In this document: one piece after another, positions 3,520 through 25,421 of the stretch | Position numbering within the stretch: the first letter of the stretch is position 1 | Layout of the letters: every line of letters begins with the position of its first letter | Origin: Candidatus Cloacimonadales bacterium | GTDB lineage: Bacteria > Cloacimonadota > Cloacimonadia > Cloacimonadales > DAONDQ01 | DNA: 64,000 bases | Reading direction: 5' to 3' | NCBI GenBank assembly: GCA_963662275.1 | Contig: OY759316.1 | Coordinates: forward strand, 3,968,001-4,032,000 | The notes under the pieces: model-generated | The model's input: only the letters and a program-made list of their open reading frames with translations | Told to the model about the DNA's origin: nothing | The model's database searches: none | Position numbers and translations under genes: made by a program

Positions 3520-5079
3520 ATGACAAAAGAACAAGAAAGAGATGAGTTACACCGCGCTATATGGCAGATTGCCACGGATTTACGGGGCAGCGTTGACGGA
3601 TGGGATTTCAAATCCTATGTGCTGGGTATGTTATTTTACAGATTTATTTCAGAGAACCTGACTCTATTTTTAAACAAGGAAGAACAGCGTACAGGAAACA
3701 AAGACTTTAATTATGCTGAATTATCTGACAAGGAAGCCGAGTTTGGCAGGGCTGATACGGTAAAAGAAAAAGGCTTTTATGTCCTCCCCTCCGAGCTGTT
3801 TTTTAATGTTCGCAAAAACGCAAAGAACGATGCTGATCTGAATGAAACACTGAGTAGGATTTTTACCAACATTGAAAACTCCGCTAAAGGGACCGAGAGC
3901 GAAAATGATTTGAAGGGTTTGTTTGATGATATAGACCTTAACAGCAACAAATTGGGAGCCACTGTACAAAAAAGAAATGAAAAGCTGGTAAAGATATTGG
4001 ATGCCATTGGTGGACTAAATCTGGGTGATTATCAGGATAATACGAATGATACTTTCGGTGATGCCTACGAATTTCTGATGACCATGTATGCCAGTAATGC
4101 CGGTAAATCAGGGGGAGAATTCTTTACGCCCCAGGAAGTTTCCGAATTACTCGCTGAAATGGCAGTAGTCGGCAAAAAAGAAGTCAATAAGGTCTATGAC
4201 CCTGCCTGCGGTTCCGGTTCACTACTGCTCAAATTTGCTAAAGTACTGGGCAAAGAAAATGTCCGTCAGGGATTTTATGGACAAGAGATAAATCTTTCCA
4301 CCTACAATCTGTGCCGCATCAATATGTTTCTGCACGATGTCAACTTTGAGAAGTTCGATATCGCTCATGGTGATACTTTAATGGATCCTAAACACTGGGA
4401 TGATGAGCCGTTTGATGCCATTGTTTCCAATCCTCCCTACTCCATCCACTGGGATGGAGATGCCAACCCCTTATTGATAAATGATCCCCGTTTTTCACCT
4501 GCAGGAGTGCTTGCTCCCAAAAGCAAAGCCGACCTTGCTTTTACCATGCACATGCTTTCCTGGCTTTCGACATCCGGCACTGCGGCTATTGTTGAATTCC
4601 CTGGAGTTTTGTATCGTGGTGGGGCTGAACAGAAGATTCGCAAATACCTAATCGACAACAATTACATTGATACGGTTATTCAACTCCCGCCTGATTTGTT
4701 CTTTGGAACTACCATTGCCACCTGTATTATCGTGATTAAAAAGAGCAAAAAAGACAATGCCACCCTGTTTATTGATGCCTCTGCCGAGTTTGTACGGGGA
4801 GGCAACAAAAACAAGCTTTCTGAAGCCAACCGCAAACGTATCCTGAATGCCTTTATTCAGCGTCAAGACGAAGACTACTTTACCAGGCTGGTTCCCAATA
4901 GCGAGATTGCAGAGAATGAGTACAATATCGCAGTAAGCTCTTTTGTAATTCGGGAAGATACAAGTGAGGATGTCGATATAGAACAGCTCAATGCCCATAT
5001 TGCAGAGATTGTGATTAGACAGAACCATCTGCGCACTGCTATTGATGAGATAGTAGCTGATTTGGAAGGTACTGTATGA
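3520..5079 (+). CDS. hsdM: type I restriction-modification methyltransferase subunit M
   Basis: GEFFTP, DPACGSG (motif I) and NPPY (motif IV); LRGSVDGWDFK N-terminus typical of EcoR124I-like HsdM. Confidence 0.97.
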   Translation: MTKEQERDELHRAIWQIATDLRGSVDGWDFKSYVLGMLFYRFISENLTLFLNKEEQRTGNKDFNYAELSDKEAEFGRADTVKEKGFYVLPSELFFNVRKNAKNDADLNETLSRIFTNIENSAKGTESENDLKGLFDDIDLNSNKLGATVQKRNEKLVKILDAIGGLNLGDYQDNTNDTFGDAYEFLMTMYASNAGKSGGEFFTPQEVSELLAEMAVVGKKEVNKVYDPACGSGSLLLKFAKVLGKENVRQGFYGQEINLSTYNLCRINMFLHDVNFEKFDIAHGDTLMDPKHWDDEPFDAIVSNPPYSIHWDGDANPLLINDPRFSPAGVLAPKSKADLAFTMHMLSWLSTSGTAAIVEFPGVLYRGGAEQKIRKYLIDNNYIDTVIQLPPDLFFGTTIATCIIVIKKSKKDNATLFIDASAEFVRGGNKNKLSEANRKRILNAFIQRQDEDYFTRLVPNSEIAENEYNIAVSSFVIREDTSEDVDIEQLNAHIAEIVIRQNHLRTAIDEIVADLEGTV

Positions 5080-5101: not shown

Positions 5102-6331
5102 ATGAACACGATAGATGGATTGATACAAGAACTATGTCCAGATGGAGTGGAGTGGAATACTCTGGGGGAGGCATGTCAATATATTTCAGCTGGAGGAGAT
5201 TTACCCAATAATTATAAAAAAGGTCAGACAATTCCTTCAGCAGACTTTCCATATCCAATTTTTTCGAATGGCACAGAAAAAAATGCTCTTTATGGTTATA
5301 CGGATAGCTTTAAGATTGATGCTGAAGCTGTAACTATTTCTGCACGTGGTACGATAGGATATCATACTGTACGTAATCCAAAATTTACACCAATCGTTCG
5401 ACTGATAACCTTGATCCCTAAGCAAGAGTATATTATTGCTAAGTACCTAAATTATGTTTTAGATATTACAATCATAGGCTCTTCTGGAGGAAGTATTCCT
5501 CAATTGACTGTGCCAAATGTTAAGAAAATCTCTATCCCCATCCCCCCTCTGCCTATTCAGCAGGAGATTGTCAGCATACTCGACAAGTTTACTAAGCTGG
5601 AGGCGGAGCTGGAGGCGGAGCTGGAGGCGGAGCTGGAGGCCCGCAAAAAACAGTATGAATTTTACCGTAATCAATTACTGACACCCGCTGATGTTGATGG
5701 CAAATGGTATTTGAATGGTAAAGACGTAATATGGGTTGAAATTGAAGAAGTTTTCCATCTACGAAATGGATATACTCCATCAAAAACAAGAAGTGATTTT
5801 TGGACAAACGGAAAGATCCCTTGGTTTCGATTAGAAGACATAAGAGAAAACGGAAGAATTTTGTCAGATTCTATACAGCATATTACTTCGGATGCTATTA
5901 AGGGAAAAGGACTATTCCCAGCTAATTCAATCATACTAACTACATCGGCAACAATAGGAGAGCATGCGCTAATTACAATGGCTTTTTTAGCGAATCAGAG
6001 ATTTACATGTATGTCAGTAAAACAAGCTTATTATTCAAAACTTAACGTGTTCTATATGCAATACTACATGTATGTTGTTGATGAGTGGTGTAAAAATAAT
6101 ATTAACGTATCAGGTTTTGCAAGCGTAGATATGGACAAATTTCGGAAACTAAAAATCCCTATCCCACCTCTTGACGAACAGGAGCGTATTGTAACCATAT
6201 TGGATAAATTCGATGCTTTGGTCAATGACATATCATTCGGTCTTCCTGCCGAAATAGAAGCCAGAAGAAAGCAATATGAGTACTATCGGAAAAAGCTGCT
6301 GACCTTCAAAAACATCTCAGATGTTTCATGA
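5102..6331 (+). CDS. hsdS: type I R-M specificity subunit S
   Basis: Two TRDs, each followed by IPIPPL..Q..IV.ILDKF; central LEAE repeat; CPDGVEW N-terminus. Confidence 0.96.
   Translation: MNTIDGLIQELCPDGVEWNTLGEACQYISAGGDLPNNYKKGQTIPSADFPYPIFSNGTEKNALYGYTDSFKIDAEAVTISARGTIGYHTVRNPKFTPIVRLITLIPKQEYIIAKYLNYVLDITIIGSSGGSIPQLTVPNVKKISIPIPPLPIQQEIVSILDKFTKLEAELEAELEAELEARKKQYEFYRNQLLTPADVDGKWYLNGKDVIWVEIEEVFHLRNGYTPSKTRSDFWTNGKIPWFRLEDIRENGRILSDSIQHITSDAIKGKGLFPANSIILTTSATIGEHALITMAFLANQRFTCMSVKQAYYSKLNVFYMQYYMYVVDEWCKNNINVSGFASVDMDKFRKLKIPIPPLDEQERIVTILDKFDALVNDISFGLPAEIEARRKQYEYYRKKLLTFKNISDVS
5595..5640 (+). repeat. in-frame 12-bp tandem repeat (AGCTGGAGGCGG x3.8) in the hsdS spacer helix
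   Basis: Perfect units at 5595, 5607 and 5619, partial unit at 5631. Encodes (LEAE)n. Confidence 0.95.
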
Positions 6332-6338
6332 GGTAAAG

Positions 6339-9300
6339 ATGAAATATGATATCATAGCTCAAAACCCGGAAAGTACTGTTGTCGCAGAATACAATTCACC
6401 TTCTATACGAGAGACAGCTTACCAATCTGAAGCTGACTTGGAAAAGGATTTTGTTCAATTGTTAAAGGCACAGGCTTATGAATATCTGCCAATCACTTCT
6501 GAAAGTGGGCTGATTGCCAATCTGCGAAAACAACTGGAAATCCTAAACAACTACTCTTTTTCTGATAAAGAATGGAAACAATTGTTCGAAACCAAAATTG
6601 CCAACCTTAACAATGGCATTGAAGAAAAAACCACGATCCTTCAAGAGGACTTTATCCAGTTATTAACCTGTGACAATGGGGTAACGAAAAACATCTATTT
6701 ACTGGATAAAGCTAATATTCATAATAACCGTTTGCAGGTGATTAATCAATATTCTGTTGATGGCGGTCAGCGTGCCAACCGCTATGATGCTACGATATTG
6801 GTAAACGGTATTCCTATGGTTCACCTGGAGCTTAAAAAACGAGGTGTGGATATAAAAGAGGCGTTTAACCAGATCAACCGTTATAATCGCGAATCCTTCT
6901 GGGCAGGGAGTGGACTCTTTGAGTATATCCAGATATTTGTTATTTCTAACGGCACTCATACCAAATATTACAGTAATACAACCCGATTCACTCATATAAA
7001 AGAACAAAGTGACGGAAAAGTAAAAAAGGGGAAGCGCACAAGCAACAGCTTTGAGTTTACTTCCTGGTGGGCTGATGGCAATAATAAACCTATCACAGAT
7101 TTGATGGATTTTGGAAGAACTTTTTTTGCCAAACATACCTTGTTAAACCTGCTGACGAAATATTGTGTTTTTACTTCTGATAAACTACTGCTTGCCATGC
7201 GTCCCTACCAAATTGTGGCAACTGAGCGTATCTTGAGAAGAATTGAAATTGCACATAATTATAAACAATACGGTAATGTTGATGGTGGCGGATATATCTG
7301 GCATACAACAGGCAGCGGAAAGACACTGACTTCCTTTAAAACTGCTCAGATTGCATGCAAACTGCCATATATAGATAAGGTGCTGTTTGTAGTTGATAGA
7401 AAAGACCTTGATTATCAGACAATGTTAGAATATGATAAATTTGAGAAAGGAGCTGCGAATAGTAATACAAGTACTGCAATATTAAAAAAACAGCTTGAAG
7501 ATATCAACGCCAAGATCATCATTACCACGATACAGAAGCTATCTGTCCTGATAAAAAAAGAAAAATATCATCCTGTCTATAATCAGCATGTAGTGATTAT
7601 CTTTGATGAGTGCCATCGTTCCCAGTTTGGTGATATGCACAATGCAATTACAAAGAGCTTTAAGAAATATCATCTGTTTGGATTTACAGGCACTCCCATA
7701 TTTGCAGTTAATGCAAGTAGAAACTTGAATTCTCAATTATGTACAACAGAACAAGCATTTGGTGAAAAGCTTCATACTTATACCATCGTAGATGCCATTA
7801 TGGATAAGAACGTTCTTCCCTTCCGTATAGATTATATCAGCACAATGAAGGAGCAGGAAGATATTGCCGACACTAAAGTATGGGACATTGATAGAGAAAG
7901 AGCACTGGCAGCCCCTGCACGTGTAACTAACATCGTGAAGTATATTCTTGAACATTTTGATCAGAAGACCAAACGGAATAGCTATTATCAGCTCAAGGAA
8001 AGACGTTTGGCGGGCTTCAATGCTATCTTTGCCACAGCATCGATTGACATTGCGAAGAAATACTATTCCGAATTTCAAAAACAGATGACTGGATTACCAA
8101 GCGATAAACAATTAAAAATTGCCACAATTTACAGCTTTGGAGTCAATGAAGACGAGGTAGAGATAGAGGGTATAATCGAGGATGAAAACCTGGAGGATAC
8201 AAGCAGATTGGATAAAAGCTCAAGGGATTTCCTGGAATCTGCAATAGAGGACTATAATAAACTCTTCAGAACAAACTTCGATACTTCCAGCGATAAGTTT
8301 CAAAACTATTATAAAGATGTCTCCCAAAGAGTAAAAGACCGTGAAATTGACTTGCTTCTAGTCGTAAATATGTTCCTTACAGGTTTTGATGCTACAACAC
8401 TCAATACACTCTGGGTGGATAAGAATCTACGTTTACATGGTCTTTTACAGGCATATTCACGTACAAACCGTATTCTCAATACGATCAAAACCTTCGGGAA
8501 TATCGTATGTTTCCGAAATTTAGAGAAAGCAACCAATGAGAGTATAGCCCTATTTGGAGATAAGGAAGCAAGTGGGATAGTCCTGCTTAAGACCTTTGAT
8601 GAATACTACCATGGATATCATTCTGGAGAGAAAACAATACCCGGCTATGTGGAATTAGTGGGTGAACTGCTGGAAAAATATCCCGTTGGAGCAAGAATCA
8701 TCGGTGAACAGAATCAAAAGGATTTTATCAAACTGTATGGTACTATCTTGAAATTACGCAATATCCTTTCATCTTTTGATGAGTTTATCGGACTTGAAAT
8801 CCTGACGGAAAGAGATGTCCAGGACTATCATAGCATGTATATCGATCTCTACAATGAATTCCGAGGAAAGAACAAAGGCGATGCAGAAAACGTAAATGAC
8901 GACATTGTGTTTGAAATGGAATTGATCAAGCAAGTAGAGATAAACATTGATTACATTTTAATGCTGATCAAGAAATATCATGAAGGACACCAAAAGAATA
9001 AAGAGATAGTAATCAGTATAAACAAAGCAATTGATTCCAGCGTAGAATTACGTAACAAAAAAGACCTAATAGACCTATTCATAGCCAGCTTAAATCCCTC
9101 AACAGATGTGGATAAAGATTGGCATGAATTTGTAGAAGCAAAAAAAATAGAGGAATTGAATAAAATAATAGAAGATGAGAACCTAGACAAAGAAGAAACA
9201 TATAAATTCATCGCAAATGCATTCAGAGATGGATTCGTACAAGAATCAGGCACTGCAATCACAAAGGTCTTACCTCCTATTTCTAAATTCACACCAACTG

Positions 9301-9392
9301 GTGAACGCAGTATAAAGAAAGCATCTGTTCTGGAGAGATTTAAAGCCTTCTTTAATAGGTTTTGGGATATTTCGGGAAGTAACACGCTATGA
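6339..9392 (+). CDS. hsdR: type I R-M endonuclease subunit R
   Basis: RYD..ELK nuclease motif, TGSGKT Walker A, DECHRS, FTGTP, LTGFD, QAYSRTNR. Start moved from 6321 to ATG 6339 (GAGGT RBS). Confidence 0.96.
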   Translation: MKYDIIAQNPESTVVAEYNSPSIRETAYQSEADLEKDFVQLLKAQAYEYLPITSESGLIANLRKQLEILNNYSFSDKEWKQLFETKIANLNNGIEEKTTILQEDFIQLLTCDNGVTKNIYLLDKANIHNNRLQVINQYSVDGGQRANRYDATILVNGIPMVHLELKKRGVDIKEAFNQINRYNRESFWAGSGLFEYIQIFVISNGTHTKYYSNTTRFTHIKEQSDGKVKKGKRTSNSFEFTSWWADGNNKPITDLMDFGRTFFAKHTLLNLLTKYCVFTSDKLLLAMRPYQIVATERILRRIEIAHNYKQYGNVDGGGYIWHTTGSGKTLTSFKTAQIACKLPYIDKVLFVVDRKDLDYQTMLEYDKFEKGAANSNTSTAILKKQLEDINAKIIITTIQKLSVLIKKEKYHPVYNQHVVIIFDECHRSQFGDMHNAITKSFKKYHLFGFTGTPIFAVNASRNLNSQLCTTEQAFGEKLHTYTIVDAIMDKNVLPFRIDYISTMKEQEDIADTKVWDIDRERALAAPARVTNIVKYILEHFDQKTKRNSYYQLKERRLAGFNAIFATASIDIAKKYYSEFQKQMTGLPSDKQLKIATIYSFGVNEDEVEIEGIIEDENLEDTSRLDKSSRDFLESAIEDYNKLFRTNFDTSSDKFQNYYKDVSQRVKDREIDLLLVVNMFLTGFDATTLNTLWVDKNLRLHGLLQAYSRTNRILNTIKTFGNIVCFRNLEKATNESIALFGDKEASGIVLLKTFDEYYHGYHSGEKTIPGYVELVGELLEKYPVGARIIGEQNQKDFIKLYGTILKLRNILSSFDEFIGLEILTERDVQDYHSMYIDLYNEFRGKNKGDAENVNDDIVFEMELIKQVEINIDYILMLIKKYHEGHQKNKEIVISINKAIDSSVELRNKKDLIDLFIASLNPSTDVDKDWHEFVEAKKIEELNKIIEDENLDKEETYKFIANAFRDGFVQESGTAITKVLPPISKFTPTGERSIKKASVLERFKAFFNRFWDISGSNTL

Positions 9393-9514
9393 ATATGCGG
9401 CTTATAATCATTACCTGGAGAAGATTAGGGAAATGGGATTTTATTGTCGCACATGACATGTCAAAACTAAGCATTATAAGAACTCAATGACTGATACTAT
9501 GAAAGGAGGATATC

Positions 9515-10465
9515 GTGAAAAATCTCTTTATTGTTGATGGAGCCTCGGGAGCAGGTAAATTTGAGATGGTAAAATATGTATCCGAGTTTAAAAATGATTG
9601 CTCATATGTCCAGAAGTATACAACCAGAAAAACTCGCAATTACGAGAAGAATGCTCGGTTGATTCTTGATCTTATTTTTGTAGATGACGATACGAAATTT
9701 CAGGAGATGAAATTTGATTACAAATATAGGTATGCAGGAAATATGTATGGCGTGTATAAAAAAGATATTTTAGCAGCAATGTCTATGAGTAATAACGTGT
9801 TTATTATAATCAGAAATTATGAAGTAATCAATTCATTAGCCCATGATTTTTCGTATGTTAATGTCATCCCATTATTTGTACATACTTGTGATAATGTAAT
9901 TGAAAAATGGATGAAGGAAAAAAAAGATATTACTCCAGAACAGATTAACGAAGCACTTGATAGAAATCTGTTAGCTTATGCTGATTATCATAAAAAACCC
10001 AATATTTACAAAGAAATTATTATTAATAATTCTGACAAAAAAGACCTTTTTACTACATGTGATAAGTTACTTGAAAAATACTACTACTCTTCTTGTATTG
10101 ATGATAAACTGATCTTTATTTTTATGTCATTCAGATCGGAGAACAAACATATGCTAGATTATCTGGAGAGTATGAAAAGAGCTGTGAAAAAAATCGATTC
10201 TTCATACAGATGTATTAATCTCGAAGATATACATGGTTCAAGTTATAAAATCTCTGAAGAAGCAATTTCGAACATGATTCGTTGTAGATTAGCGATTGTG
10301 GATTTATCAGATGCAAGACCAGATGTTTATTATGAATTAGGGTATCTTCATGCGATAAAGAAAAAAACTATTATCACAGCTATTGACGGAACGAATCTAC
10401 CTTTTTACCCAAAAGAATTCAAGGTCGTTTTTACGAAAATGCAACTGATCTGCAGAAGAAGTTAG
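9515..10465 (+). CDS. guanylate-kinase-like P-loop domain fused to a nucleoside 2-deoxyribosyltransferase/TIR-like domain; likely 1-bp frameshift near the 3' end (restored stop 10503)
   Basis: GASGAGK, KYTTRKTR and YG motifs; C-terminal IFIFMSF...AIVDLS...DVYYELG. Adding one T to T5 at 10428-10432 gives VVFYENATDLQKKLVIELSAFLTENM*. Confidence 0.75.
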   Translation: MKNLFIVDGASGAGKFEMVKYVSEFKNDCSYVQKYTTRKTRNYEKNARLILDLIFVDDDTKFQEMKFDYKYRYAGNMYGVYKKDILAAMSMSNNVFIIIRNYEVINSLAHDFSYVNVIPLFVHTCDNVIEKWMKEKKDITPEQINEALDRNLLAYADYHKKPNIYKEIIINNSDKKDLFTTCDKLLEKYYYSSCIDDKLIFIFMSFRSENKHMLDYLESMKRAVKKIDSSYRCINLEDIHGSSYKISEEAISNMIRCRLAIVDLSDARPDVYYELGYLHAIKKKTIITAIDGTNLPFYPKEFKVVFTKMQLICRRS

Positions 10466-10622
10466 TAATTGAACTTTCAGCATTCCTAACAGAGAATATG
10501 TAATTGAAGTGAGATTCAACATATTTGAAAGGAGAAGGCATTACTACGGATTAACATTACCTTTATCCAGAATTGATAAAAAAGAAGAATCTCACCAATT
10601 GCTACACAGCAAAGGAGTATCT

Positions 10623-11066
10623 ATGAAAAAGGATGAACTCTCAATATACGAAAGCCCAGCCGTAATCAAGCACTTGGAGATTTTGCAGGATATAATTACG
10701 AGAATGGCTGGGAATGGTGCAGCCTGTAAAACCTGGGCAATACCAGTTATCACCGGCATCATAGCATTCTCGGTGGAAAAACAGTGTATTCCAATCTGGG
10801 TTAGTCTTATTCCCGCGATTATGTTTTTTGTCTTAGATTCATTCTATCATGGGTTAGAAAGGCATTTCATTGACACCCAAAAAGAATTTGTAGCAAAATT
10901 GTCGGATAATACCTTACAATTAAATGATATCTATGTTATAAAATCAATACGATACTTAATTATCCATTTGAAATTCCTGTTTAGAGGGATGTTATCTTTC
11001 GCTACAGGACTTGTCTATATTCCCATTATTGCACTAATATTATGGCTGTGGAAGACAGGCTACTAA
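10623..11066 (+). CDS. small multi-pass membrane protein (TIR-associated effector-like, 147 aa)
   Basis: AAGGAG RBS before ATG 10623. HLEILQDIITRMAGN..KTW motif followed by about three hydrophobic segments and LDSFY..LER. Confidence 0.7.
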   Translation: MKKDELSIYESPAVIKHLEILQDIITRMAGNGAACKTWAIPVITGIIAFSVEKQCIPIWVSLIPAIMFFVLDSFYHGLERHFIDTQKEFVAKLSDNTLQLNDIYVIKSIRYLIIHLKFLFRGMLSFATGLVYIPIIALILWLWKTGY

Positions 11067-11085
11067 ACACACAAAAGAGACGATC

Positions 11086-11193
11086 ATGCCTAAAAGACAA
11101 GTTTTCTATCGGAGGTAATTGTGTATAGAGGATTTAATATCAAAGACATCAAACTCGAAGACAAGTACATCGAAGCTGGTAAAAACCAACAAT
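11086..11193 (+). pseudogene. stubs of two probable TIR-domain genes
   Basis: MPKRQVFY (11086) resembles the N-terminus of MTH538/ThsB-type TIRs and breaks off. GGAGG + GTG 11121 gives MYRGFNIK..., recalled as the N-terminus of another TIR family, and runs into the IS-end remnant. Family match is from memory. Confidence 0.45.
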
Positions 11194-11290
11194 TGAATAA
11201 TATTCTTAATGAGAGCCACTTGTACGGAGTTTTAGAGCCACGTCTTCGCTAAAATAGAGCCACCTAATTCGAAAGTGAGAGCCACAATTC
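11194..11290 (+). mobile_element. IS21-family-like terminal remnant (no transposase)
   Basis: Starts TGAATAAT..; AGAGCCAC at 11212, 11234, 11256 and 11278 (exact 22-bp period). Inverted relatives at 50581-50652 and 52516-52583. Confidence 0.6.
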
Positions 11291-11499
11291 AATTTAAGAC
11301 TGAAGATTAAATATTAAGAATTGGCATTGAAGAAGCTTATAGCTTGTAGGGATAGCGGAAGGTGGCAGAGACCAGGGAACAGTTCAGAGCAGAGCAGACT
11401 TAGAGTTCAAAATTCTTCTTGACTCTTTCATTTGAGGAATAAACTATACGAATTATGTAAATGCATGGGTAAATACGAAACATATCTAGGGGTAGAGAA

Positions 11500-11820
11500 A
11501 TGGCAAAGAATCAAATAAAAGAGCCCTCCATTCAATACAAGCATAGTTGTACACTAGAATACGGACTCGAAAAGCTTATCAATTATGATTTAAAATCCCC
11601 AATCAATTACACTTTGGAATGGGATGATCAGTATTATATTGCTGAGTCAACGGATTTTCCTATCTATGCCATTGGAGATACAGAGCTTGAAGCGATTGAA
11701 GCTTTGAAATTGGAAATTGAGAACCTCTATTCTGAATTACAAGAAAATGAGAAGTTATCTGATGAATGGGCAAAATACAAATTTATGTTACAAAGTATAA
11801 TAATAAAGCACTGTGAATAA
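11500..11820 (+). CDS. HicB-like antitoxin (no DNA-binding domain)
   Basis: YYIAESTDFPIYAIGDTELEAIEALK matches the HicB partial RNase H fold. Acidic. Overlaps the next gene. Confidence 0.6.
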   Translation: MAKNQIKEPSIQYKHSCTLEYGLEKLINYDLKSPINYTLEWDDQYYIAESTDFPIYAIGDTELEAIEALKLEIENLYSELQENEKLSDEWAKYKFMLQSIIIKHCE

Positions 11821-12085
11821 CGCTCAATTTAGCACGAATCAGATACTGAAAGTATGCCAGGATAAGCTTGAAATTGAATTCAAGAGTACCAAAGAGTATA
11901 ATGGTTGGTATATGTTAGATGGGAAATGTGTTTGTCGTATTACAATCCCGAAGGGAAGAAAAGAAGTGCCTCTCAAAACTTATACATGTATGGCTAAACA
12001 ACTGAAACTCACTACATGGCAATTCGATATTTTACTTCAATGTACATTAACAAGAAAGGATATGAGTCGATTATTCGTAGTCTGA
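11813..12085 (+). CDS. HicA-like toxin; probable 1-bp frameshift at the C-terminus (restored stop 12096)
   Basis: Small basic dsRBD-like pattern RITIPKGRKEVPLKT..MAKQLKL. One extra base at ~12060 gives K(D/E)YESIIRSLKLV*. Confidence 0.55.
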   Translation: MNNAQFSTNQILKVCQDKLEIEFKSTKEYNGWYMLDGKCVCRITIPKGRKEVPLKTYTCMAKQLKLTTWQFDILLQCTLTRKDMSRLFVV

Positions 12086-12139
12086 AATTAGTCTGATTTT
12101 ATCAGAACAAATTCAGGAATACATACAATTTTACCGTAT

Positions 12140-12545
12140 GATGTCACTCCTTGCGGGGTTCTAATGGTATTGTGGGTTTCTCCCTGTAGTTCCATTTCAT
12201 TCCACTACAGGTTATGATCTACCATCTCTTCGAGATTAAGAGAAGACGCAAAGAATTTAAGATTGAAAATTGAACACTTCGACGGGCTCAGTGCAAGGAT
12301 TGTGATTTGGCAGAAAAGCAGATCAGAACTAGCTCTCCCTTAATCCCTCCCTTTACAAATGGGAGGGAAATTCCAGAATTATTTTTCATTTTTTAAAAAT
12401 AAATCGAAATGCTCCCTCCTATATATATATATGAGGGCTCTGTTTTAAACGAGTTTAAAACTTCGCTAATTAAAAATTAAAAGTTAAAAATTAGCAGAGC
12501 AGAACTAACGCCCCCTTTATCCCCCTCTTTGCAAAATTGGGGGAG
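12140..12545. repeat. mosaic of REP-like hairpins and short repeats
   Basis: cctgtagt..actacagg hairpin; cttcgacgggctcag motif; tccctcccttt..gggaggga (12333-12371, copy at 63351-63390); (TA)n stem; palindrome gttttaaac-ga-gtttaaaac. Confidence 0.6.
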
Positions 12546-18350: not shown

Positions 18351-20698
18351 TGAATTTATTGAATAGGATCAGGGAACGCATCAGAAATTCTCTGATCAAT
18401 AAGTTTATTCTCGTATTTTTATTCGGTGGTATGGTGCCTGTACTCATACTCAGCGGTTGGACTGCCTGGGTTTCACATCGGGCTGTGAATATGTATATTA
18501 GTGGGTCCGTGTATCAGATATTGAAGGAGAAGATCAACTTCTCGGTATTGAGACTGCAGGAGATTGAGAGTTTAATTGCAAATATCTCAGGTGTTGAAGA
18601 TATATCCACGACTCTCAACCAGGAAAGCAGCCAACAAAGTGATTATGATAAACTTCGATTACAGGCAAAAATCGGTTATATCCTCAATGGATATATCAAT
18701 ATTGAGGGTTTGGAGTCGATTGACATTATCTCGACTGGTGGAAATCGTTATCACGTGGGAGAATCTTTAGTTACTGATAATCAAAGCTATAAACCTGTTC
18801 TGGAAAGGATTCTAAAAGAAAACCATACAGCTAACAGCTCTATCGTTTGGCATGGTATTTTACCTCGACTGGACAAGAGTAATCAGTACTCACTACTAGC
18901 ATCCAAAGAATTGGTCTTGATTGACCCTGTGACTATGACAGAAAAGCCTGTTGGCATCCTGATTGTACAATTTTCAGTTAATACTTTCAATTCTGAGTTT
19001 ATCTCAAATAAACAAGATGGGTTCTCATACGTCATCCTGGATAACAAGAATAATTGTATCTTATCAACTCTTCCCAGGGAGATAGGGAAACCGTTTTTCT
19101 CACATCACAAGATTATAAAGAGCAATCCAAAAGATAATTTTGTCAGTGTTCGACTAGATAATAAGGAAGTATATCAGCTAAAATTTCTGAGTGAATTCAA
19201 TCATTGGACGTATTATGTATTTCTCAGTACAGCTTATATGAATAATATGACCTCTGAATTCACGCGTGGAATAATTTTAATCGTTGTTATTTTCCTCTCG
19301 CTCACGCTATTGATTAACTGGACATTCCTACGCTATCTATTGGTACCGGTAAAAAACATCACGAAGATTTTTGCTGAGATTTCAGAAAATCGCTATGACC
19401 TGACTAAACAACTTCCCAATCCTCACTCAGATGAAATCGGTGACCTGATCAAATGGTTCAATGCCTTCACTACCAATCTGGTGGATAAAGAGCGTTATCG
19501 GGCAGAATTGGAAGTACAAAAGGAATTAGCAGAAAAAGCCAATCATGCCAAAGATATCTTTTTAGCAAATGTCAGTCACGAACTACGTACTCCTTTAAAC
19601 GGAGTAATTTCAGTAGCTGAACTCTTGAATAGCACGAACTTGGATGTAGAGCAGCACAAATATACAAAAATGATCCTGCAATCAGGAGAAATCCTCTATT
19701 CTCTGATCAACCAAGTATTGGATTTTTCTAAAATATCTTCTGATAAAACAGTCCTTTTACCTCACGATTTCGATTTCATCGATCTGTGTGATAAACTGGC
19801 TAATCTCTATTTAGTGCAGTCGAATATAAAAAAAATCGCTTTCAACTACCAGAAACCAGAACAAAACAGTCTTTTCATCCATGCAGATGAGATGGCTTTA
19901 CAAAAAATTATGATCAACCTTTTAGGGAATAGCCTTAAGTTCACAACAGAAGGAGTAATTTCTTTTAAAGTAAACCTATCTTATCCATCTGTGGGCAAAG
20001 TCCTGATTTCAATTGCAATATCAGATACAGGTATCGGTATTCCATTAGAAAAGCAACAGGTTATCTTCAAAGCCTTTGAGCAAGTGGACAATTCACTGAC
20101 TAAAAAGCAAGGTGGAACAGGTTTAGGTTTGGCTATTGCTCAAAAGTTAGCGTTCCTGATGGATAGTAGGATTAATATTCAAAGTCCTAATCCTGACTTT
20201 ATCAATGCTGTTCATCCGGGTTCGATATTTAGCTTGATTCTAGAATTACCTTTAGCGGAATCCAATGTTAACTTGGATACGACTTATACAGATGTGATTC
20301 ATCCATTACTATCCGGCAAATATTCACATCCTTTAACAGCCTTGATTGTTGAAGACAATCTGATCAATCAGGCAGTATTAAGTGCTATCCTTGAAAAATA
20401 TAATATTACCTGTGATATAGCATCTGAATGGGAAGAGTGCCTCAGTTATCTGGCTAAAAATACATATAACTACATTTTCATGGATATCCAAATGCCCGGG
20501 ATGACCGGCTTTGATTTAACCGTCAGAATTCGTGATCTGAAGATTGTTACTCCAATCATAGCATTAACCGGTAATGCACTCAAAGAAGTGGAAGAACAGG
20601 CATATCAAAGCGGTATGAATGCCTTCATGTTCAAACCCATAAGGATCAGTGAACTGGAAAGAATCCTGCTGCAATTTTTACCAAAGGACCAAGTATAG
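18350..20698 (+). CDS. membrane hybrid histidine kinase (Cache-like, HAMP, HisKA, HATPase, REC)
   Basis: Two TM segments, SHELRTPL, DTGIG, GTGLGL and a C-terminal receiver. Start overlaps the SBP stop. Confidence 0.92.
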   Translation: MNLLNRIRERIRNSLINKFILVFLFGGMVPVLILSGWTAWVSHRAVNMYISGSVYQILKEKINFSVLRLQEIESLIANISGVEDISTTLNQESSQQSDYDKLRLQAKIGYILNGYINIEGLESIDIISTGGNRYHVGESLVTDNQSYKPVLERILKENHTANSSIVWHGILPRLDKSNQYSLLASKELVLIDPVTMTEKPVGILIVQFSVNTFNSEFISNKQDGFSYVILDNKNNCILSTLPREIGKPFFSHHKIIKSNPKDNFVSVRLDNKEVYQLKFLSEFNHWTYYVFLSTAYMNNMTSEFTRGIILIVVIFLSLTLLINWTFLRYLLVPVKNITKIFAEISENRYDLTKQLPNPHSDEIGDLIKWFNAFTTNLVDKERYRAELEVQKELAEKANHAKDIFLANVSHELRTPLNGVISVAELLNSTNLDVEQHKYTKMILQSGEILYSLINQVLDFSKISSDKTVLLPHDFDFIDLCDKLANLYLVQSNIKKIAFNYQKPEQNSLFIHADEMALQKIMINLLGNSLKFTTEGVISFKVNLSYPSVGKVLISIAISDTGIGIPLEKQQVIFKAFEQVDNSLTKKQGGTGLGLAIAQKLAFLMDSRINIQSPNPDFINAVHPGSIFSLILELPLAESNVNLDTTYTDVIHPLLSGKYSHPLTALIVEDNLINQAVLSAILEKYNITCDIASEWEECLSYLAKNTYNYIFMDIQMPGMTGFDLTVRIRDLKIVTPIIALTGNALKEVEEQAYQSGMNAFMFKPIRISELERILLQFLPKDQV

Positions 20699-20747
20699 AT
20701 ACTTACTTGGTTGGCGGATGTCTAATCATATTTTGAAGAGGTTTATC

Positions 20748-23700
20748 GTGCAGGAAGAATTAATTAAGACTATTCTATTAGTCGATGATGATACAGTCAT
20801 AACAATTCAAGTAGCAAAGATTCTCAAGAACTTCGGTTATGATGTTATTAACGCAAAAACCGGAGAAGAAGCTATTGGAATTGGTATAAACAATACACAG
20901 ATTAGTCTTATTTTGCTTGATATAAATCTAGGTGAGGGAATAGATGGAGCGGAAGTAGCCCGTCAGATTCTTGCGAAATCAGATATTCCTATTGTCTTCC
21001 ATATATCCAATACTGAGCAGGAATATGTTGGTCGAATAAGAGGAATTCACCATTACGGGATTATTATGAAGCATTCTGGAGATTATATCCTTAGAGCTTC
21101 AATTGAAACAGCTCTCAATCTATTTGAATCAACTAAAAATTATCATACTTTTTTTAATACAGTAGACGACTTGCTCTTTGTTCTTAATGAACAGGGAAAT
21201 ATACTTCATGTTAATACTACATTTATTGATCGGCTTGGATATACTAGAGACGAAATTGTGGGAAAACCGATACTCATGATTTATCCGATTGAACTTCGGG
21301 AAAAGGCTGCCAGTTGTTTCGCTACAATGTTGAATGGTGATACTGAGGTTTGTCAGATTCCGGTGTTATCAAAAGCAGGTGATCAAATACCAGTGGAAAC
21401 TAAAATTAAAAAAGGAATATGGGATAAAAAGTCAGTTATGTTTGGTGTAATGGAGGATATGTCACGCATCCAGTTATCTGAAGAGAAATTCAATAAATTA
21501 TTCCAGATCAATCCATCTGCTTGTGGGTTAAGCGATTTATGTGATCACAAATACATTGAAGTTAATGAAGCATTTTACAAGTTGTTTGGCTTAGAAAAAG
21601 ATGAAGTTATCGGTAAGACAGTATTTGAATTAGGAATATTAGCCGTTGAACAAAAGGATAATGTACTCCAAAAAGCAGACATAAATGGCAAAATCAAAAA
21701 CGCAGAAATTACACTTCGCGCAAAAAACGGCGATATCAAGCATGTGCTTTTTTCTTCAGAGAATATCATTCTTCAAAATAAGAAATACCGTTTTACGGTA
21801 GTTGATGACATCACTGAACGGATATCAACTGAACAAGCGTTAAGGAAGAGTGAAGGTAAATATAGAGTGCTTACCGAGAGTATGCAAGATGTTGTCTGGA
21901 TTCTTGATACAACGACGATGTATTATACTTATGTCAGTCCATCTATTCAGAAACTTCGTGGGTACACACCAGAAGAAGTAATCTCAGAGCCTGTTTATGC
22001 ATCCCTTTCTCCTGAAGCTGCAGAGAGTCTTAAGAAGACTGTTAATCGTCGCAAAGCGGATTTCTTATCCGGGAAAGTACCACCTGACAGATATTATTCA
22101 GATGAAAATAAACTACTTTGCAAGGATGGTTCAACCATCTGGGCTGAAGTGTCTGCAAATTATTATCTGAATGAAGAAACCGGACATGTTGAAACACGTG
22201 GATTAACTCGGGATATAACACAGCAAAAGCTTGCAGAACAAGAAGTCAAACACCAGGCGAATCTCATTACTTTGCTCCTGGATTCAATTCCTGATATTAT
22301 CTTTTATAAGGATGTGGACGGTGTATATCTTGGTTGTAATCCTCCTTTTGCTGAATTCGTCGGCAAACCAAGAGAAGAAATTATCGGGAAAACCGATTAT
22401 GATCTTTTTGATAAGGCAAAAGCAGACTCTTTCAGAGAATATGATAAACAATTGTTGAAGGTCTGTGAATCGCGCCATAAAGAAGAGTGGACGACTTATC
22501 CTGATGGACGTACGGTGATGATTGATACACTGAAAACACCCTATTGGGGAGTCAATCATGAACTACTTGGAATACTGGGTATTAGTCGAGATATCACAGA
22601 ACAGAAGAAGGCGGAAGATACTTTACAGCAGAGCATTCAGAAATGGGAAGCCATCATCACAGCATCTCCAGATGGCATTGGAATTGTATCATTAGACGGT
22701 AAAATACAATTGATGTCTAATAGATTGGCGACAATGTATGGATATACAGTTGAAGAAATTAGGAATTATATCGGGAAAGATATCTTCATTTTTATTGATC
22801 CTTCCAATCATCAAAAGCTAGTTGATAATATACACAAACTGCTTAGCAGTGATAAAGATCAAAAAATCACAGAGTATCTGGCTGTAAAAAAAGATAATAG
22901 CAGGTTTTATGTCGATGTGAATTCAACCATTTTATATGATTCTAAAGGCAATCCGACGAGTATTTTGTTTGTGGAACGCGACATTACCACCCGAAAGCAG
23001 ACAGAGGAGGACTTGAAACAAATATCCACTCGTCTTGCGCTGGCAGCTAGTGCTGGAGGAGTGGGTGTATGGGATTACGATGTGGTCAACAATATACTTG
23101 TATGGGATGATCAAATGTTTGCTCTTTATGGAATAAAGAAAGAGCATTTCAAGGGTGTCTATGAAACATGGCTAGCTGGACTTTATCCAGAAGACAAAGA
23201 GAGAACAGATAATGAAATTAAGCGAGTATTAAGAGGGGAAATTGACTACAATACCGAATTTCGTGTCCTATGGGCTAATGGTGAAATTCATAATATCCGA
23301 GCTATGGGACTGTTAAATCGGGACAGTAATGGCAGCCCTTCACATTTAATCGGTACGAATTGGGATATCACAGCACAGAAGAACGCAGAGATGGAATTAT
23401 TGAAAACGAACCTACAGCTACAAAGTTCCATTTCTTTAGCAAATGAAATGGCTACAAGAGCAGAAACTGCTAATAAAGCTAAATCTGAATTTTTAGCAAA
23501 TATGAGCCATGAAATCCGAACACCACTTAACGGAGTTATCGGTTTTACTGACTTATTGATGAATCTATCATTAGAACCATTACAAAAACAATATGTGGAA
23601 AATGCCAATATTTCAGCTCACTCATTACTAGGTATCATAAATGATGTTTTGGATTTCTCGAAAATTGAAGCAGGGAAACTGGAACTGGATGAAGTGAAAA

Positions 23701-25421
23701 CGGACTTAATCGAATTATTAGAGCAAACATCAGACATTGTTAAATATGCAGCAGATAAGAAAGGGCTTGAATTATTACTGAATATTCCATTCAATATTCC
23801 TCGTTTTGTAACTCTAGATCCAGTGAGAACCAGACAAATTCTAATTAATCTGATCAGTAACAGCATTAAATTTACCGATAAAGGAGAAATCGAGATTGCG
23901 ATTCAGTTCGAAGAAATAGAAGTCTCTCCCGAGAAATCTGAATTCGGTAATCCAGGCAAATTTACATTTACTGTTAGAGACACTGGAATTGGCATTTCCA
24001 AAGAGAATCAAAGTAAATTATTCAAAGCATTTAGCCAGGCAGATACTACAACTACGAGGAAGTTTGGCGGCACTGGTTTGGGACTGGTTATTTCCAATCT
24101 CCTTGCTGAAAAAATGGGATCTGCCATTTTGATGGAAAGTGAATTTGGAAAGGGAAGCCAATTTAGCTTTTCAATTACTACATTGTTTGAATCTGGTATT
24201 AACTTTCTCCCCAAGAGAGAACTCGAGATCAAGAAAGCGCTCATTATTGATGACAATGCTAATAATCGGACAATTTTAAAAGATACACTTCATAATTGGG
24301 ATGTTGAAACAGAAGAATGTTCAAATGGTTGGGAAGCGTTAGAGATATTTAAAAATAATAGTGACTTCGATGTTGTTCTCATAGATTATAATATGCCTTA
24401 TCTGAATGGGCTGGAAACAATAGCAAAAATGAGAGCTATGAAGAAAGATACAATAGAAAAGATCCCTATCATCTTACTGCATAGTTCAGGCGAGGATGCT
24501 CTTATCCATGAAGGGTGCCGGGTGAATGAAGTAAGGGCTCAATTAGTAAAACCTGTTAAGTTAAGTGAATTTTACCAAGTGCTATTTCTGAGAAATCCAA
24601 TTATAAATAGAAACAGTGTAAAGAATTCATTAAGTGTGATTGAGAATGAAAACAACCAAATTCCGACAAAGAAGCAAGGACTTGTGAAAATCCTTATCGT
24701 TGATGATGTTCCTATGAATATGGCTTTAGTAAAGGCTGTTATTCGATATATCATTTCTGATGTCATTATCATCGAAGCAAATGATGGATATGAATCACTC
24801 GTCAAATTCAGAGAGACAATTCCGGATCTGGTTCTAATGGATGTGCAAATGCCTGGAATGGATGGTTATACGGCTTCCCTAAAGATTAGAGAGATAGAGA
24901 GGGAATTGAATGTTCATGTCCCTATCATCGCTTTGACTGCTGGTGCTACAATAGGTGAAAAAGAAAGATGCCTGGAAAGCGAAATGGATGATTATTTAAC
25001 CAAACCCCTTGATCCGTTTGTCCTTAAAATGCTGCTCCAAAAGTATCTGTGCACACATGATATCACAGAGGAAATTGATTTGAAAGTTCAGCCTACCAAT
25101 ACGATCCATTTTGACTGTGAACTATTGTTAAGCAAAATTGGAAAAGACGAGAGACAATTAAAATCCCTGCTGCAAACGGTATTAAAGACATATCCCGATT
25201 ATCTAAATGAACTGAGTCAAGCGATCAATGAGAGAGATGACATACAAATCAGAAAGCTGACACATAAAATAAAAGGGTCAGCTTCCAGCATGCATTTTCC
25301 GATTTTGGCTGAATTGATGCGATTAATGGAAACAACTGAGGATATGATACTTCTGCAAGACCATTTTACCAAGACGTTAGAAGAATGGAATGAATTGCGT
25401 TTGATTATTGAAATCCCATAA
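20748..25421 (+). CDS. cytoplasmic hybrid histidine kinase (REC, multiple PAS/PAC, HisKA, HATPase, 2 REC, HPt)
   Basis: About six PAS/PAC units ending DIT.RK/QK, SHEIRTPL, GGTGLGL, two receivers and the HKIKGSA HPt. Start set at GTG 20748 (GAGG RBS); the ORF is open from 20649. Confidence 0.92.
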   Translation: MQEELIKTILLVDDDTVITIQVAKILKNFGYDVINAKTGEEAIGIGINNTQISLILLDINLGEGIDGAEVARQILAKSDIPIVFHISNTEQEYVGRIRGIHHYGIIMKHSGDYILRASIETALNLFESTKNYHTFFNTVDDLLFVLNEQGNILHVNTTFIDRLGYTRDEIVGKPILMIYPIELREKAASCFATMLNGDTEVCQIPVLSKAGDQIPVETKIKKGIWDKKSVMFGVMEDMSRIQLSEEKFNKLFQINPSACGLSDLCDHKYIEVNEAFYKLFGLEKDEVIGKTVFELGILAVEQKDNVLQKADINGKIKNAEITLRAKNGDIKHVLFSSENIILQNKKYRFTVVDDITERISTEQALRKSEGKYRVLTESMQDVVWILDTTTMYYTYVSPSIQKLRGYTPEEVISEPVYASLSPEAAESLKKTVNRRKADFLSGKVPPDRYYSDENKLLCKDGSTIWAEVSANYYLNEETGHVETRGLTRDITQQKLAEQEVKHQANLITLLLDSIPDIIFYKDVDGVYLGCNPPFAEFVGKPREEIIGKTDYDLFDKAKADSFREYDKQLLKVCESRHKEEWTTYPDGRTVMIDTLKTPYWGVNHELLGILGISRDITEQKKAEDTLQQSIQKWEAIITASPDGIGIVSLDGKIQLMSNRLATMYGYTVEEIRNYIGKDIFIFIDPSNHQKLVDNIHKLLSSDKDQKITEYLAVKKDNSRFYVDVNSTILYDSKGNPTSILFVERDITTRKQTEEDLKQISTRLALAASAGGVGVWDYDVVNNILVWDDQMFALYGIKKEHFKGVYETWLAGLYPEDKERTDNEIKRVLRGEIDYNTEFRVLWANGEIHNIRAMGLLNRDSNGSPSHLIGTNWDITAQKNAEMELLKTNLQLQSSISLANEMATRAETANKAKSEFLANMSHEIRTPLNGVIGFTDLLMNLSLEPLQKQYVENANISAHSLLGIINDVLDFSKIEAGKLELDEVKTDLIELLEQTSDIVKYAADKKGLELLLNIPFNIPRFVTLDPVRTRQILINLISNSIKFTDKGEIEIAIQFEEIEVSPEKSEFGNPGKFTFTVRDTGIGISKENQSKLFKAFSQADTTTTRKFGGTGLGLVISNLLAEKMGSAILMESEFGKGSQFSFSITTLFESGINFLPKRELEIKKALIIDDNANNRTILKDTLHNWDVETEECSNGWEALEIFKNNSDFDVVLIDYNMPYLNGLETIAKMRAMKKDTIEKIPIILLHSSGEDALIHEGCRVNEVRAQLVKPVKLSEFYQVLFLRNPIINRNSVKNSLSVIENENNQIPTKKQGLVKILIVDDVPMNMALVKAVIRYIISDVIIIEANDGYESLVKFRETIPDLVLMDVQMPGMDGYTASLKIREIERELNVHVPIIALTAGATIGEKERCLESEMDDYLTKPLDPFVLKMLLQKYLCTHDITEEIDLKVQPTNTIHFDCELLLSKIGKDERQLKSLLQTVLKTYPDYLNELSQAINERDDIQIRKLTHKIKGSASSMHFPILAELMRLMETTEDMILLQDHFTKTLEEWNELRLIIEIP

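Follow-up and report, generated by a model that had tools for sequence, protein, structure and literature searches.

A guanylate-kinase-like/NDT-TIR-like fusion protein as a candidate effector of a decayed Thoeris-like locus in a Cloacimonadales bacterium

We analysed a 64,000-nucleotide stretch of DNA from a Candidatus Cloacimonadales bacterium (assembly GCA_963662275.1, contig OY759316.1, positions 3,968,001 to 4,032,000; here called the window) and found that one of its genes, gene 1, encodes a protein with two domains. The N-terminal domain has the fold of guanylate kinase (Gmk). The C-terminal domain (C-domain) belongs to the superfamily of nucleoside deoxyribosyltransferases (NDT) and TIR domains and most resembles DNPH1 and MilB. 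Gene 1 is followed by a gene for a small membrane protein, whose relatives are accompanied by ThsB-type TIR genes, and then by the remnants of two thsB genes. We read gene 1 as an anti-phage effector enzyme that heads a decayed, multi-effector Thoeris-like operon, and we consider this reading an even call. The features on which it rests are listed here.

9515 to 10503, + strand: gene 1, Gmk-like/DNPH1-MilB-TIR-like fusion (homologue alignments; AlphaFold model)
9515 to 10090, + strand: guanylate-kinase-fold P-loop domain, residues 1-192 of gene 1 (TIGR03263, guanylate kinases in the PDB, Foldseek, VIA)
10100 to 10503, + strand: NDT/TIR-superfamily N-glycosidase-like domain, residues 196-329 of gene 1 (PDLC00733, PF05014, VIA, profile against the PDB)
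10428 to 10432, + strand: run of five T at which the reading frame breaks (homologue C-termini)
10623 to 11066, + strand: gene for a small membrane protein (P0160) of 147 amino acids (aa), PDC-M50A family, apparently intact (PADLOC, homologues)
11086 to 11118, + strand: first thsB relic, 10 codons (tblastn and DNA comparison)
11121 to 11252, + strand: 5' stub of a second thsB gene, 43 codons (alignment to genes of 251-254 aa)

The open frame of gene 1 runs from a GTG start at 9515 to 10465 (+ strand) and encodes 316 aa (protein P0001). The motifs that an earlier note had picked out from the letters (GASGAGK, TTR..R, YG and D..YELG) are all in this frame: GASGAGKF is residues 9-16 (nt 9539-9562), TTRKTR residues 36-41, YG residues 78-79 and DVYYELG residues 270-276, with E274 encoded at nt 10334-10336. 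In alignments, relatives have nothing that corresponds to the final ten residues of the open frame, and homologues extend for about 25 further residues (FY.NAS.L...L..L) that form a conserved amphipathic C-terminal helix. The window has this helix in the frame of 10402, as FYENATDLQKKLVIELSAFLTENM, with a stop at 10501-10503. Because the helix lies in a second frame, and because the frames of 9515 and 10402 meet at the five-T run at 10428-10432, gene 1 is one base short or out of register, as the earlier note had indicated. The frameshift is present in the assembled sequence. Read through it, gene 1 encodes 329 aa; full-length relatives have 318-345 aa. The AlphaFold model of the protein had a mean local confidence (pLDDT) of 89 and a predicted template-modelling score (pTM) of 0.84, and the matches to both domains described below, by sequence and by structure, were well above chance.

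The N-terminal domain was matched by the NCBIfam guanylate kinase model TIGR03263 with E 3.3e-11 and 43.1 bits, far under the cut-off of 160.45, and by guanylate kinases in the PDB with E 3e-6. With the modelled structure, Foldseek found 2f3r_B (E 1.3e-10, TMt 0.74) and VIA found 2qor_A (residues 1-192, Z 18.4, root-mean-square deviation (rmsd) 3.0, 183 residues aligned). Pfam PF00625 gave no match to P0001 at E<=0.1 and matched 7 of 9 relatives (best E 7.5e-10). K15, K34, R38, Y71, Y78 and G79 are invariant in an alignment of 30 sequences, and the second Arg of TTR..R is nearly so. The P-loop of the window copy, GASGAGKF, does not satisfy the Walker A pattern G..G.GK[ST]. The Phe after the P-loop Lys, which had been singled out as an oddity, is indeed there but is not unique. 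Ser or Thr stands at this position in 25 of the 30 sequences; the other five have Phe (window and P0085), Val (P0012), Ala (P0018) or Glu (P0035).

Guanylate specificity, in contrast, found no support. In an alignment with human GUK1, gene 1 retains the two phosphate-binding Arg residues and the Tyr of YG (R38, R41 and Y78). The GUK1 residues S37, Y53, E72 and D101, its guanine/GMP contacts, align to K34, L53, Y69 and I99 of gene 1. A profile search found the housekeeping gmk, with 229 bits, elsewhere in the genome of the window (G000:C1:1568440-1568970). Judged by its sequence, the N-terminal domain appears to be a Gmk-fold nucleotide-binding or kinase domain and not a guanylate kinase.

The assignment of the C-domain to the NDT/TIR superfamily, made earlier from the YELG pattern, was borne out by profile and by structure. 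A profile of 23 C-domains compared with PDB sequences found DNPH1/Rcl first (E 5e-8 to 1e-5), then NDT (1e-3), Cap12 (3e-3) and PycTIR (0.6). In VIA comparisons of residues 196-316, the best match was MilB (4ohr_A, Z 12.8, rmsd 2.5, 119 residues aligned), followed by the TIR domain of SfSTING (7un8_A, Z 11.2, 22% identity), nucleoside deoxyribosyltransferases (Z 11.1 for 6evs_B, and 10.8) and the animal TIR domains of TIRAP, SARM1 and IL-18R-beta (Z 10.3-10.8). The animal TIR domains and SfSTING lie about 1.5-2.5 Z units below MilB. Pfam Nuc_deoxyrib_tr (PF05014) matched P0001 with E 1.8e-4 and 22.1 bits, under its gathering score of 28.8, which two relatives pass (P0025 with 29.1 and P0147 with 33.8). 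The PADLOC "Effector TIR" model PDLC00733 matched the C-domain with E 2e-7 and matched all nine family members; the PADLOC ThsB model matched three of the nine and Pfam CAP12-PCTIR_TIR (PF10137) two. Glu274 and G276 of VYYELG are invariant in both the 30-sequence and the 23-sequence alignment, and the motif of the first strand is FV.MSF, which is TIR-like in appearance. DNPH1/Rcl are 2'-deoxynucleoside 5'-phosphate N-hydrolases and MilB is a CMP N-glycosidase. The rankings by sequence and by modelled structure favour, although not decisively, a glycosidase acting on nucleoside monophosphates (NMP) or deoxynucleoside monophosphates (dNMP) over an NADase.

A hidden Markov model (HMM) of the C-domain also found this domain in other fusions. 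It is joined to STALD/SLOG, to Cap17-like_N (L058:5432-6598, which is PDLC00733 itself, E 4e-200), to TPR-S (E 1e-11 to 1e-13; this is the architecture of ThsI, and the TPR-S proteins form a clade of their own in a tree of C-domains) and, in L042, to a PRK/uridine-kinase domain, a second and independent fusion to a kinase (L numbers denote loci in other genomes, P numbers proteins). Narrow ThsB HMMs found no thsB gene beside the genes that join the C-domain to TPR-S; the two neighbours inspected were patatin/CapV-like and YEATS-like. In flavobacterial islands (L016:7479-11308, L023:7452-11134, L029:1014-9308 and L015:9651-12829), genes for a SLOG-C-domain protein, a CAP12-TIR-like protein, a C-domain-TPR-S protein and a patatin/CapV-like phospholipase are lined up, and in L015 the YEATS-like protein adjoins the TPR-S gene.

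The gene downstream from gene 1 links the locus to TIR genes. Its best start is the ATG at 10623, and homologues begin at the same Met. P0160 matched the PADLOC model PDC-M50A (E 4.8e-20) and has 23 homologues at 29-74% identity, nearly all of them 143-151 aa long at 54-74%. It is predicted to have 2-3 hydrophobic helices (hydropathy; a helical AF2 model with pLDDT 83). Pfam gave no family for P0160 or for 6 relatives, Foldseek gave no match at E<=0.001, and the Atlas neighbours have no Pfam family. A SLATT domain found no support from Pfam or from hhalign against a SLATT_1/3 protein (probability 0.25).

We scanned metagenomes for the membrane gene, taking the best 80 of 156 relatives, and examined the upstream open reading frame (ORF) on the same strand in 74 loci. 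The link to the membrane gene that the earlier note had proposed was supported: the upstream gene is TIR-like or NDT-like in 45 of the 74 loci. Of these upstream ORFs, 38 are matched at E<=1e-5 by PADLOC models of the TIR type (15 PDLC00733-type, 12 PDC-M50B/ThsB, 5 ThsB PDLC00430 and 6 weak ThsB) and a further 7 pass the Pfam ThsB_TIR threshold; the remainder are unrelated or unannotated. The 15 PDLC00733-type proteins are about 300 aa long and have a C-domain homologous to that of gene 1 (E 1e-25 to 1e-29 with our C-domain HMM) behind a Zn-ribbon region at the N-terminus, which has no relationship to Gmk. We considered whether this region is a cryptic Gmk-like domain and rejected the idea, since the HMM of the Gmk-like domain had no match in the 80 membrane-gene loci and hhalign gave a probability of 0.14. 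Of 8 ORFs tested downstream from the membrane gene, Pfam assigns 7 to ThsB_TIR and PADLOC assigns the remaining one to ThsB.

The closest loci have the order [Zn-ribbon–NDT-like] – [membrane protein] – [ThsB of about 160 aa] – [ThsB of about 251 aa] or, alternatively, [membrane protein] – [ThsB of 192 aa] – [ThsB of 160 aa] – [ThsB of 251 aa]. Relatives of the locus have one to three intact thsB genes. An intact trio, [Zn-ribbon–NDT-like] – [membrane protein] – [ThsB], is present in another genome from the order to which the organism of the window belongs, behind a large gene that contains a methylase.

The window itself has only remnants of the thsB genes. The first relic begins 19 nt past the stop of the membrane gene. 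It consists of 8 initial codons, MPKRQVFY, followed without a change of frame by RR and a stop. MPKRQVFY is exactly the start, and RR-stop the end, of ThsB genes of 160 aa, so about 150 codons have been lost in frame. The DNA after the relic matches sequence downstream from intact thsB, including the start of the next gene. The thsB genes used in this comparison (by tblastn and by DNA; L099, L101, L103 and L106) encode 160-177 aa and are themselves well supported, with ThsB_TIR at E 1e-26 to 1e-28, PDC-M50B/ThsB at E 1e-66 to 1e-77 and PDB 8wcf_A at E 9e-63. In the second stub, the first 24-29 residues align with genes of 251-254 aa from L093, L094, L099, L101, L103, L104 and L107 (PADLOC ThsB PDLC00430, E 1e-74); the best alignment has E 5e-5, and the stub ends at codon 43. 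By these sequence comparisons, both of the presumed signal-generator genes are deleted or truncated in the window. The order of the thsB genes in relatives, together with the two relics, points to a Thoeris-like system with several effectors that has decayed. Given the thsB stubs, the frameshift in gene 1 and the Phe in its P-loop, this system is probably dead or dying here.

Several other observations concern this part of the locus. In L106 (4869-5003) the second thsB is also cut short, at 44 codons, indicating that decay of that gene is not confined to the window. At the start of the 160-aa thsB, 28 nt of the window (11081-11108) are 100% identical to L092:6049-6076, whereas the flanking coding sequence is about 71% identical; conservation of a translation-initiation region, or a hotspot of recombination, may account for this stretch. 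Just past the thsB stub, ORFs at 11500-11820 (106 aa) and 11813-12085 (90 aa) overlap, and the first has a weak antitoxin-like Pfam match (PHD_like, E 0.082). Insertion of this pair, possibly a toxin-antitoxin module, may have eliminated the remainder of thsB.

Based on the operon layout and on the other fusions found with the C-domain HMM (ThsI-like in architecture, SLOG, PDLC00733 and PRK), we infer that gene 1 is an effector of the ThsI class. We place its C-domain in one clade with the "CMP-hydrolase" domain of proteins that are built like ThsI, the TIR-like domain of the CBASS effector PDLC00733 and SLOG-fused effectors. The complete operon would have four genes: two for effectors, the second of them a small membrane protein, and two for signal-generating ThsB TIR proteins. 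In relatives with an intact operon, ThsB would respond to phage infection by making a signal derived from ADP-ribose; the effectors would be activated by it and bring the infection to an abortive end. The activated C-domain would then cleave the base-sugar bond of a nucleotide, most likely an NMP or dNMP as for DNPH1 and MilB, or alternatively NAD+ as for TIR-STING. The Gmk-fold domain would bind a nucleotide. We prefer a role in which the kinase feeds the glycosidase, such that interconversion of nucleoside diphosphates and NMP beside an irreversible hydrolase would act as a nucleotide drain. That a kinase has been fused to the glycosidase twice independently suggests that it adds or removes phosphate to give the state required by the glycosidase. 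Alternatively, the Gmk-fold domain may fill, by analogy, the slot of a ligand sensor that is held by SLOG, TPR-S or the Zn-ribbon in sister proteins, although the mostly canonical P-loops of the family (25 of 30) would suit catalysis better than a purely sensory role. The earlier proposal that the first domain handles an NMP and the second cleaves a glycosidic bond is plausible, and the similarity to DNPH1 and MilB, in sequence and in modelled structure, strengthens it.

We also looked at the genes around relatives of gene 1. A word-indexed search found only 8 relatives; an exhaustive search gave 1259 proteins with E<=1e-3, of which 146 reached E<=1e-10 and 15 reached E<=1e-30. A Pfam scan of 45 of the top matches of the exhaustive search showed that the Gmk-like domain is also joined to a CAP12-type TIR, is present as a double kinase, is combined with a dCMP deaminase in P0133 and has an added CHAT protease in P0013. 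Loci were taken from one genome per species and comprised the best 80 of 125 relatives. The full two-domain protein was present in 10 of the 80, from Ignavibacteria, Chloroflexota, Bacteroidota, Bacillota, Acidobacteriota, a metagenome-assembled genome (MAG) of Sumerlaeota and one archaeon. The family is patchy across phyla, and in a query with gene 1 the genome of the window was the only one of 41 genomes of its order to have it.

These neighbourhoods agree with the defence setting, as opposed to salvage, that the earlier note had favoured. Recognised defence or conflict genes adjoin 5 of the 10 full-length loci, none of the 10 has the context of a salvage operon, and gmk is elsewhere in the genome. 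The neighbourhoods of L004 and L043 were uninformative. In an Ignavibacteriaceae MAG (L034:5667-9062), QueC, ThsB_TIR, a SLATT_1/SLATT_3 protein and a Gmk-NDT-like protein are encoded in a row. This last protein is distant (24% identity), and the row is a second, independent pairing with a TIR and a membrane effector. Four other loci share a cassette with the fusion.

L002:5541-8990, L003:892-6014, L005:7500-11696 and L006:7412-11667: NUDIX/multi-kinase cassette (conserved gene set)

The cassette encodes a small NUDIX protein, the Gmk-NDT fusion, a NUDIX protein of 414-446 aa and a double Gmk-like kinase. In L002, two single kinases replace the double kinase and GT4-conflict is added. In L003, TIR-TM, deaminase and Mrr genes are added, and the TIR-TM gene lies directly after the Gmk-NDT gene. 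The large NUDIX protein is orthologous, over its full length and at 29-35% identity, across Chloroflexota, Bacteroidota and Acidobacteriota, and no PADLOC model covers it. For the cassette partners (NUDIX and extra kinases), a search of the genome of the window gave a single NUDIX match, about 350 kb away.

Our confidence in gene 1 as a Thoeris-like effector is evenly divided because the C-domain of the window falls among Gmk-fused proteins and because no other Gmk-fusion locus has the membrane gene. In a tree of C-domains (quick IQ-TREE, 86 rows), the window is in the Gmk-fused clade with support 99, and the Zn-ribbon proteins that usually lie upstream of the membrane gene are a separate clade with support 100. 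A homologue of the membrane gene was found in none of the 80 loci of gene 1 relatives (best tblastn E 1.0; no match with an HMM of the membrane-protein family). Other points weigh on the same side. Three of the four cassette loci lack ThsB, the copies in L001 and L007 appear to be solo, and the neighbours of the archaeal copy (L054) are housekeeping-like and look metabolic. The gap between gene 1 and the membrane gene is 119 nt, compared to about 10-35 nt in the Zn-ribbon operons, so the adjacency may reflect clustering in a defence island and not a single operon. The frameshift, finally, may be an artefact of sequencing through a homopolymer. A promoter and terminator scan of 9200-12300 gave a count of 19 against 14.3 +/- 4.0 in shuffles, not above chance, and has no bearing on operon structure either way. 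Either gene 1 took the place of the customary first gene, or it simply came to lie next to the membrane-protein/ThsB module.

If gene 1 merely landed there, it could be a stand-alone, nucleotide-depleting defence enzyme that works by the logic of AvcD/dCTP deaminase, needs no TIR signal and is next to the membrane and thsB genes by defence clustering. We regard this alternative as possible but somewhat doubtful. It would account for the grouping of the C-domain with Gmk-fused proteins from loci that have neither the membrane gene nor ThsB, and for the 119-nt gap. It also fits the solo copies, one near Gabija (L001; GajA E 4e-179, GajB E 6e-148) and a Schlafen-like gene, and the other near PDC-S15 and HEC-02 (L007). 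The presence of the Gmk-like domain on a dCMP deaminase (P0133) and with CHAT (P0013), and the second pairing of a kinase, of the PRK type, with the glycosidase in L042, point the same way. However, a gene with a homologous C-domain occupies the same slot upstream of the membrane gene in at least 15 loci, and L034 and L003 couple the family with ThsB/SLATT or TIR-TM genes. The parallel to AvcD is one of architecture only: P0133, considered as an AvcD orthologue, had no match to the PADLOC dCTP deaminase (dCTPase) model, and neither did P0001.

A related and more tentative view, which we think unlikely, is that Gmk-like/DNPH1-like fusions are self-contained nucleotide drains that form, with their cassette partners, an undescribed multi-enzyme anti-phage pathway. 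One nucleotide would be recognised, possibly a modified dNMP made by a phage, for example a hydroxymethyl-pyrimidine nucleotide. DNPH1 and MilB act on nucleotides of this class. In a reversible reaction, the kinase would lower the di- or triphosphate pool to monophosphate, and the glycosidase would then destroy the monophosphate irreversibly. The partners in this pathway would be the 414-446 aa NUDIX protein, the small NUDIX protein and the double Gmk-like kinase, which recur in four loci from three phyla.

It is also conceivable, but quite improbable, that the C-domain is a TIR-like signal generator for the membrane protein, as the earlier note had suggested, or an NADase that depletes NAD+. 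The Z scores of SfSTING and of the animal TIR domains, the TIR-type PADLOC and Pfam matches among the nine family members and the TIR-like FV.MSF strand are in keeping with such an activity. On the other hand, DNPH1 and NDT outrank Cap12 and PycTIR by profile, MilB is first by structure, and in sister architectures the C-domain follows a SLOG or Cap17-like_N sensor, in the position of the effector. In addition, relatives of the operon have dedicated ThsB-type TIR genes as signal generators, and the fusion is more likely an effector.

An ordinary salvage or housekeeping enzyme, made up of a gmk paralogue and a nucleoside deoxyribosyltransferase, is hardly credible: the weak guanylate kinase and PF05014 matches and the metabolic neighbours in L054 are set against a full-scoring gmk elsewhere in the genome, scores for both domains under the curated cut-offs, replaced guanine-contacting positions, a patchy distribution with no copy found in 40 relatives, and restriction-modification (RM), Gabija, TIR and SLATT genes as neighbours. 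The separate gmk, the absence from these relatives and the defence neighbours led us to reject both a salvage enzyme and a second gmk.

Upstream from gene 1 is a Type I RM operon, the last gene of which ends 122 nt before the start of gene 1.

3520 to 5079: hsdM (Pfam, strong support)
5102 to 6331: hsdS (Pfam, strong support)
6321 to 9392, + strand: hsdR, last gene of the operon (EcoR124_C E 7e-66, T1R_D3-like, SWI2_SNF2, HSDR_N)

hsdR is flanking context and not part of the system formed by the fusion and the membrane protein. The membrane-protein/ThsB module lies directly behind an RM gene three times (window 6321-11066, L092:1856-6024 and L175:2149-7922). In both the window and L092 the RM gene is the hsdR of a Type I system; in L175 its product is 1221 aa long and contains a TaqI/BseCI-like methylase domain. 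Shared ancestry of the whole locus was considered and rejected, as the HsdR proteins of the window and L092 are only 21% identical. Elsewhere in the window, a 1590-aa ORF (20649-25421) has a weak PADLOC match to Shedu SduA/DUF4263 at residues 1346-1408 (E 8.7e-6).

The wiring of a glycosidase domain to nucleotide kinases twice independently, Gmk-like and PRK-like, would point to destruction of nucleotides at the level of NMP. We know of no biochemical activity for the ThsI "CMP hydrolase" class, and the fusion family, predicted to be a compact and soluble protein, may offer an entry to effector chemistry of the ThsI type. The PADLOC candidate PDC-M50 can now be described more fully, as a set of three to four genes with two putative effectors. 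The comparison also exposed the conserved NUDIX/triple-kinase cassette, which had no match among the defence catalogues searched. The locus in the window is a relic. Its decayed state lowers the value of this copy, and annotating a working defence system in this genome is not warranted.

The closest known systems are types of Thoeris. A bioRxiv preprint of December 2025 describes about 30 kinds of effector across Thoeris systems; type VII has a SLATT membrane effector, type VIII has ThsI, in which a "CMP hydrolase" domain is joined to TPR, and both types answer to canonical cyclic ADP-ribose (cADPR) (10.64898/2025.12.03.692087). It also reports rare operons that have both membrane and ThsI effectors (Yirmiya et al., 10.64898/2025.12.03.692087). 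In our literature search the name ThsI was found only in this preprint. ThsI, as the preprint describes it, shares with gene 1, whose top structural match is MilB, a "CMP hydrolase"-like domain of the NDT superfamily, and the mixed type VII/VIII operons share with the operon family of the window a layout of ThsB TIR genes and a membrane effector. Gene 1 differs from ThsI as described there in having a Gmk-like P-loop domain in place of TPR; no TPR was found in gene 1. The ThsI-like TPR-S proteins sit apart from gene 1 in the C-domain tree, and we use "ThsI-like" for architecture only. Compared with type VII as it appears in the same source, the membrane protein of the window is not detectably SLATT (Pfam, hhalign) and the thsB genes are deleted. 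The effector genes precede the thsB relics in the order seen in relatives, without an intact ThsB.

PDC-M50 is a two-gene candidate system in which A is a small membrane protein and B a ThsB-like TIR protein. The membrane gene of the window is A, and B survives as relics; in relatives, the gene is paired with PDC-M50B/ThsB, with E values down to 1e-69 to 1e-76. The closest relatives of the membrane gene lie, in contrast, in sets of three or four genes that include an NDT-like fusion. No paper naming PDC-M50 turned up in the literature search.

Among single proteins, DNPH1 and MilB are the best profile and structural matches of the C-domain and share its ..V.YELG catalytic-Glu motif. The aligned sequence, however, covers only about 70 residues, and the glycine-rich phosphate loop that follows the first strand in DNPH1 and MilB is MSF here. 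Unlike gene 1, they are stand-alone metabolic proteins that are neither fused to a kinase nor found in defence loci. The CBASS effector PDLC00733 (Cap17-like_N/SLOG plus TIR-like) shares its C-domain clade with gene 1 but has a different N-terminal sensor domain, and no CD-NTase gene is near gene 1. Within the TIR-STING/Cap12 group, the SfSTING TIR resembles the C-domain at Z 11.2 and 22% identity. A review mentions sporadic phage fusions of SLOG and guanylate kinase (PMC9503650). A fusion of a guanylate-kinase-like domain to an NDT or TIR domain in defence was not described in the literature that our search returned.

AvcD and dCTP deaminase defence enzymes join a P-loop kinase-like domain to a deaminase. 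They share with gene 1 an architecture that is in part nucleotide-kinase-like and in part nucleotide-destroying, and their catalytic domain differs. The earlier note knew of no named system with the architecture of gene 1. For the fusion itself this stands, whereas its surroundings are framed by PDC-M50 and, going by the preprint, by Thoeris VII and VIII. The class of NDT/TIR effector domains was already known; what would be new is a Gmk-like/NDT-like fusion as a Thoeris-like effector.

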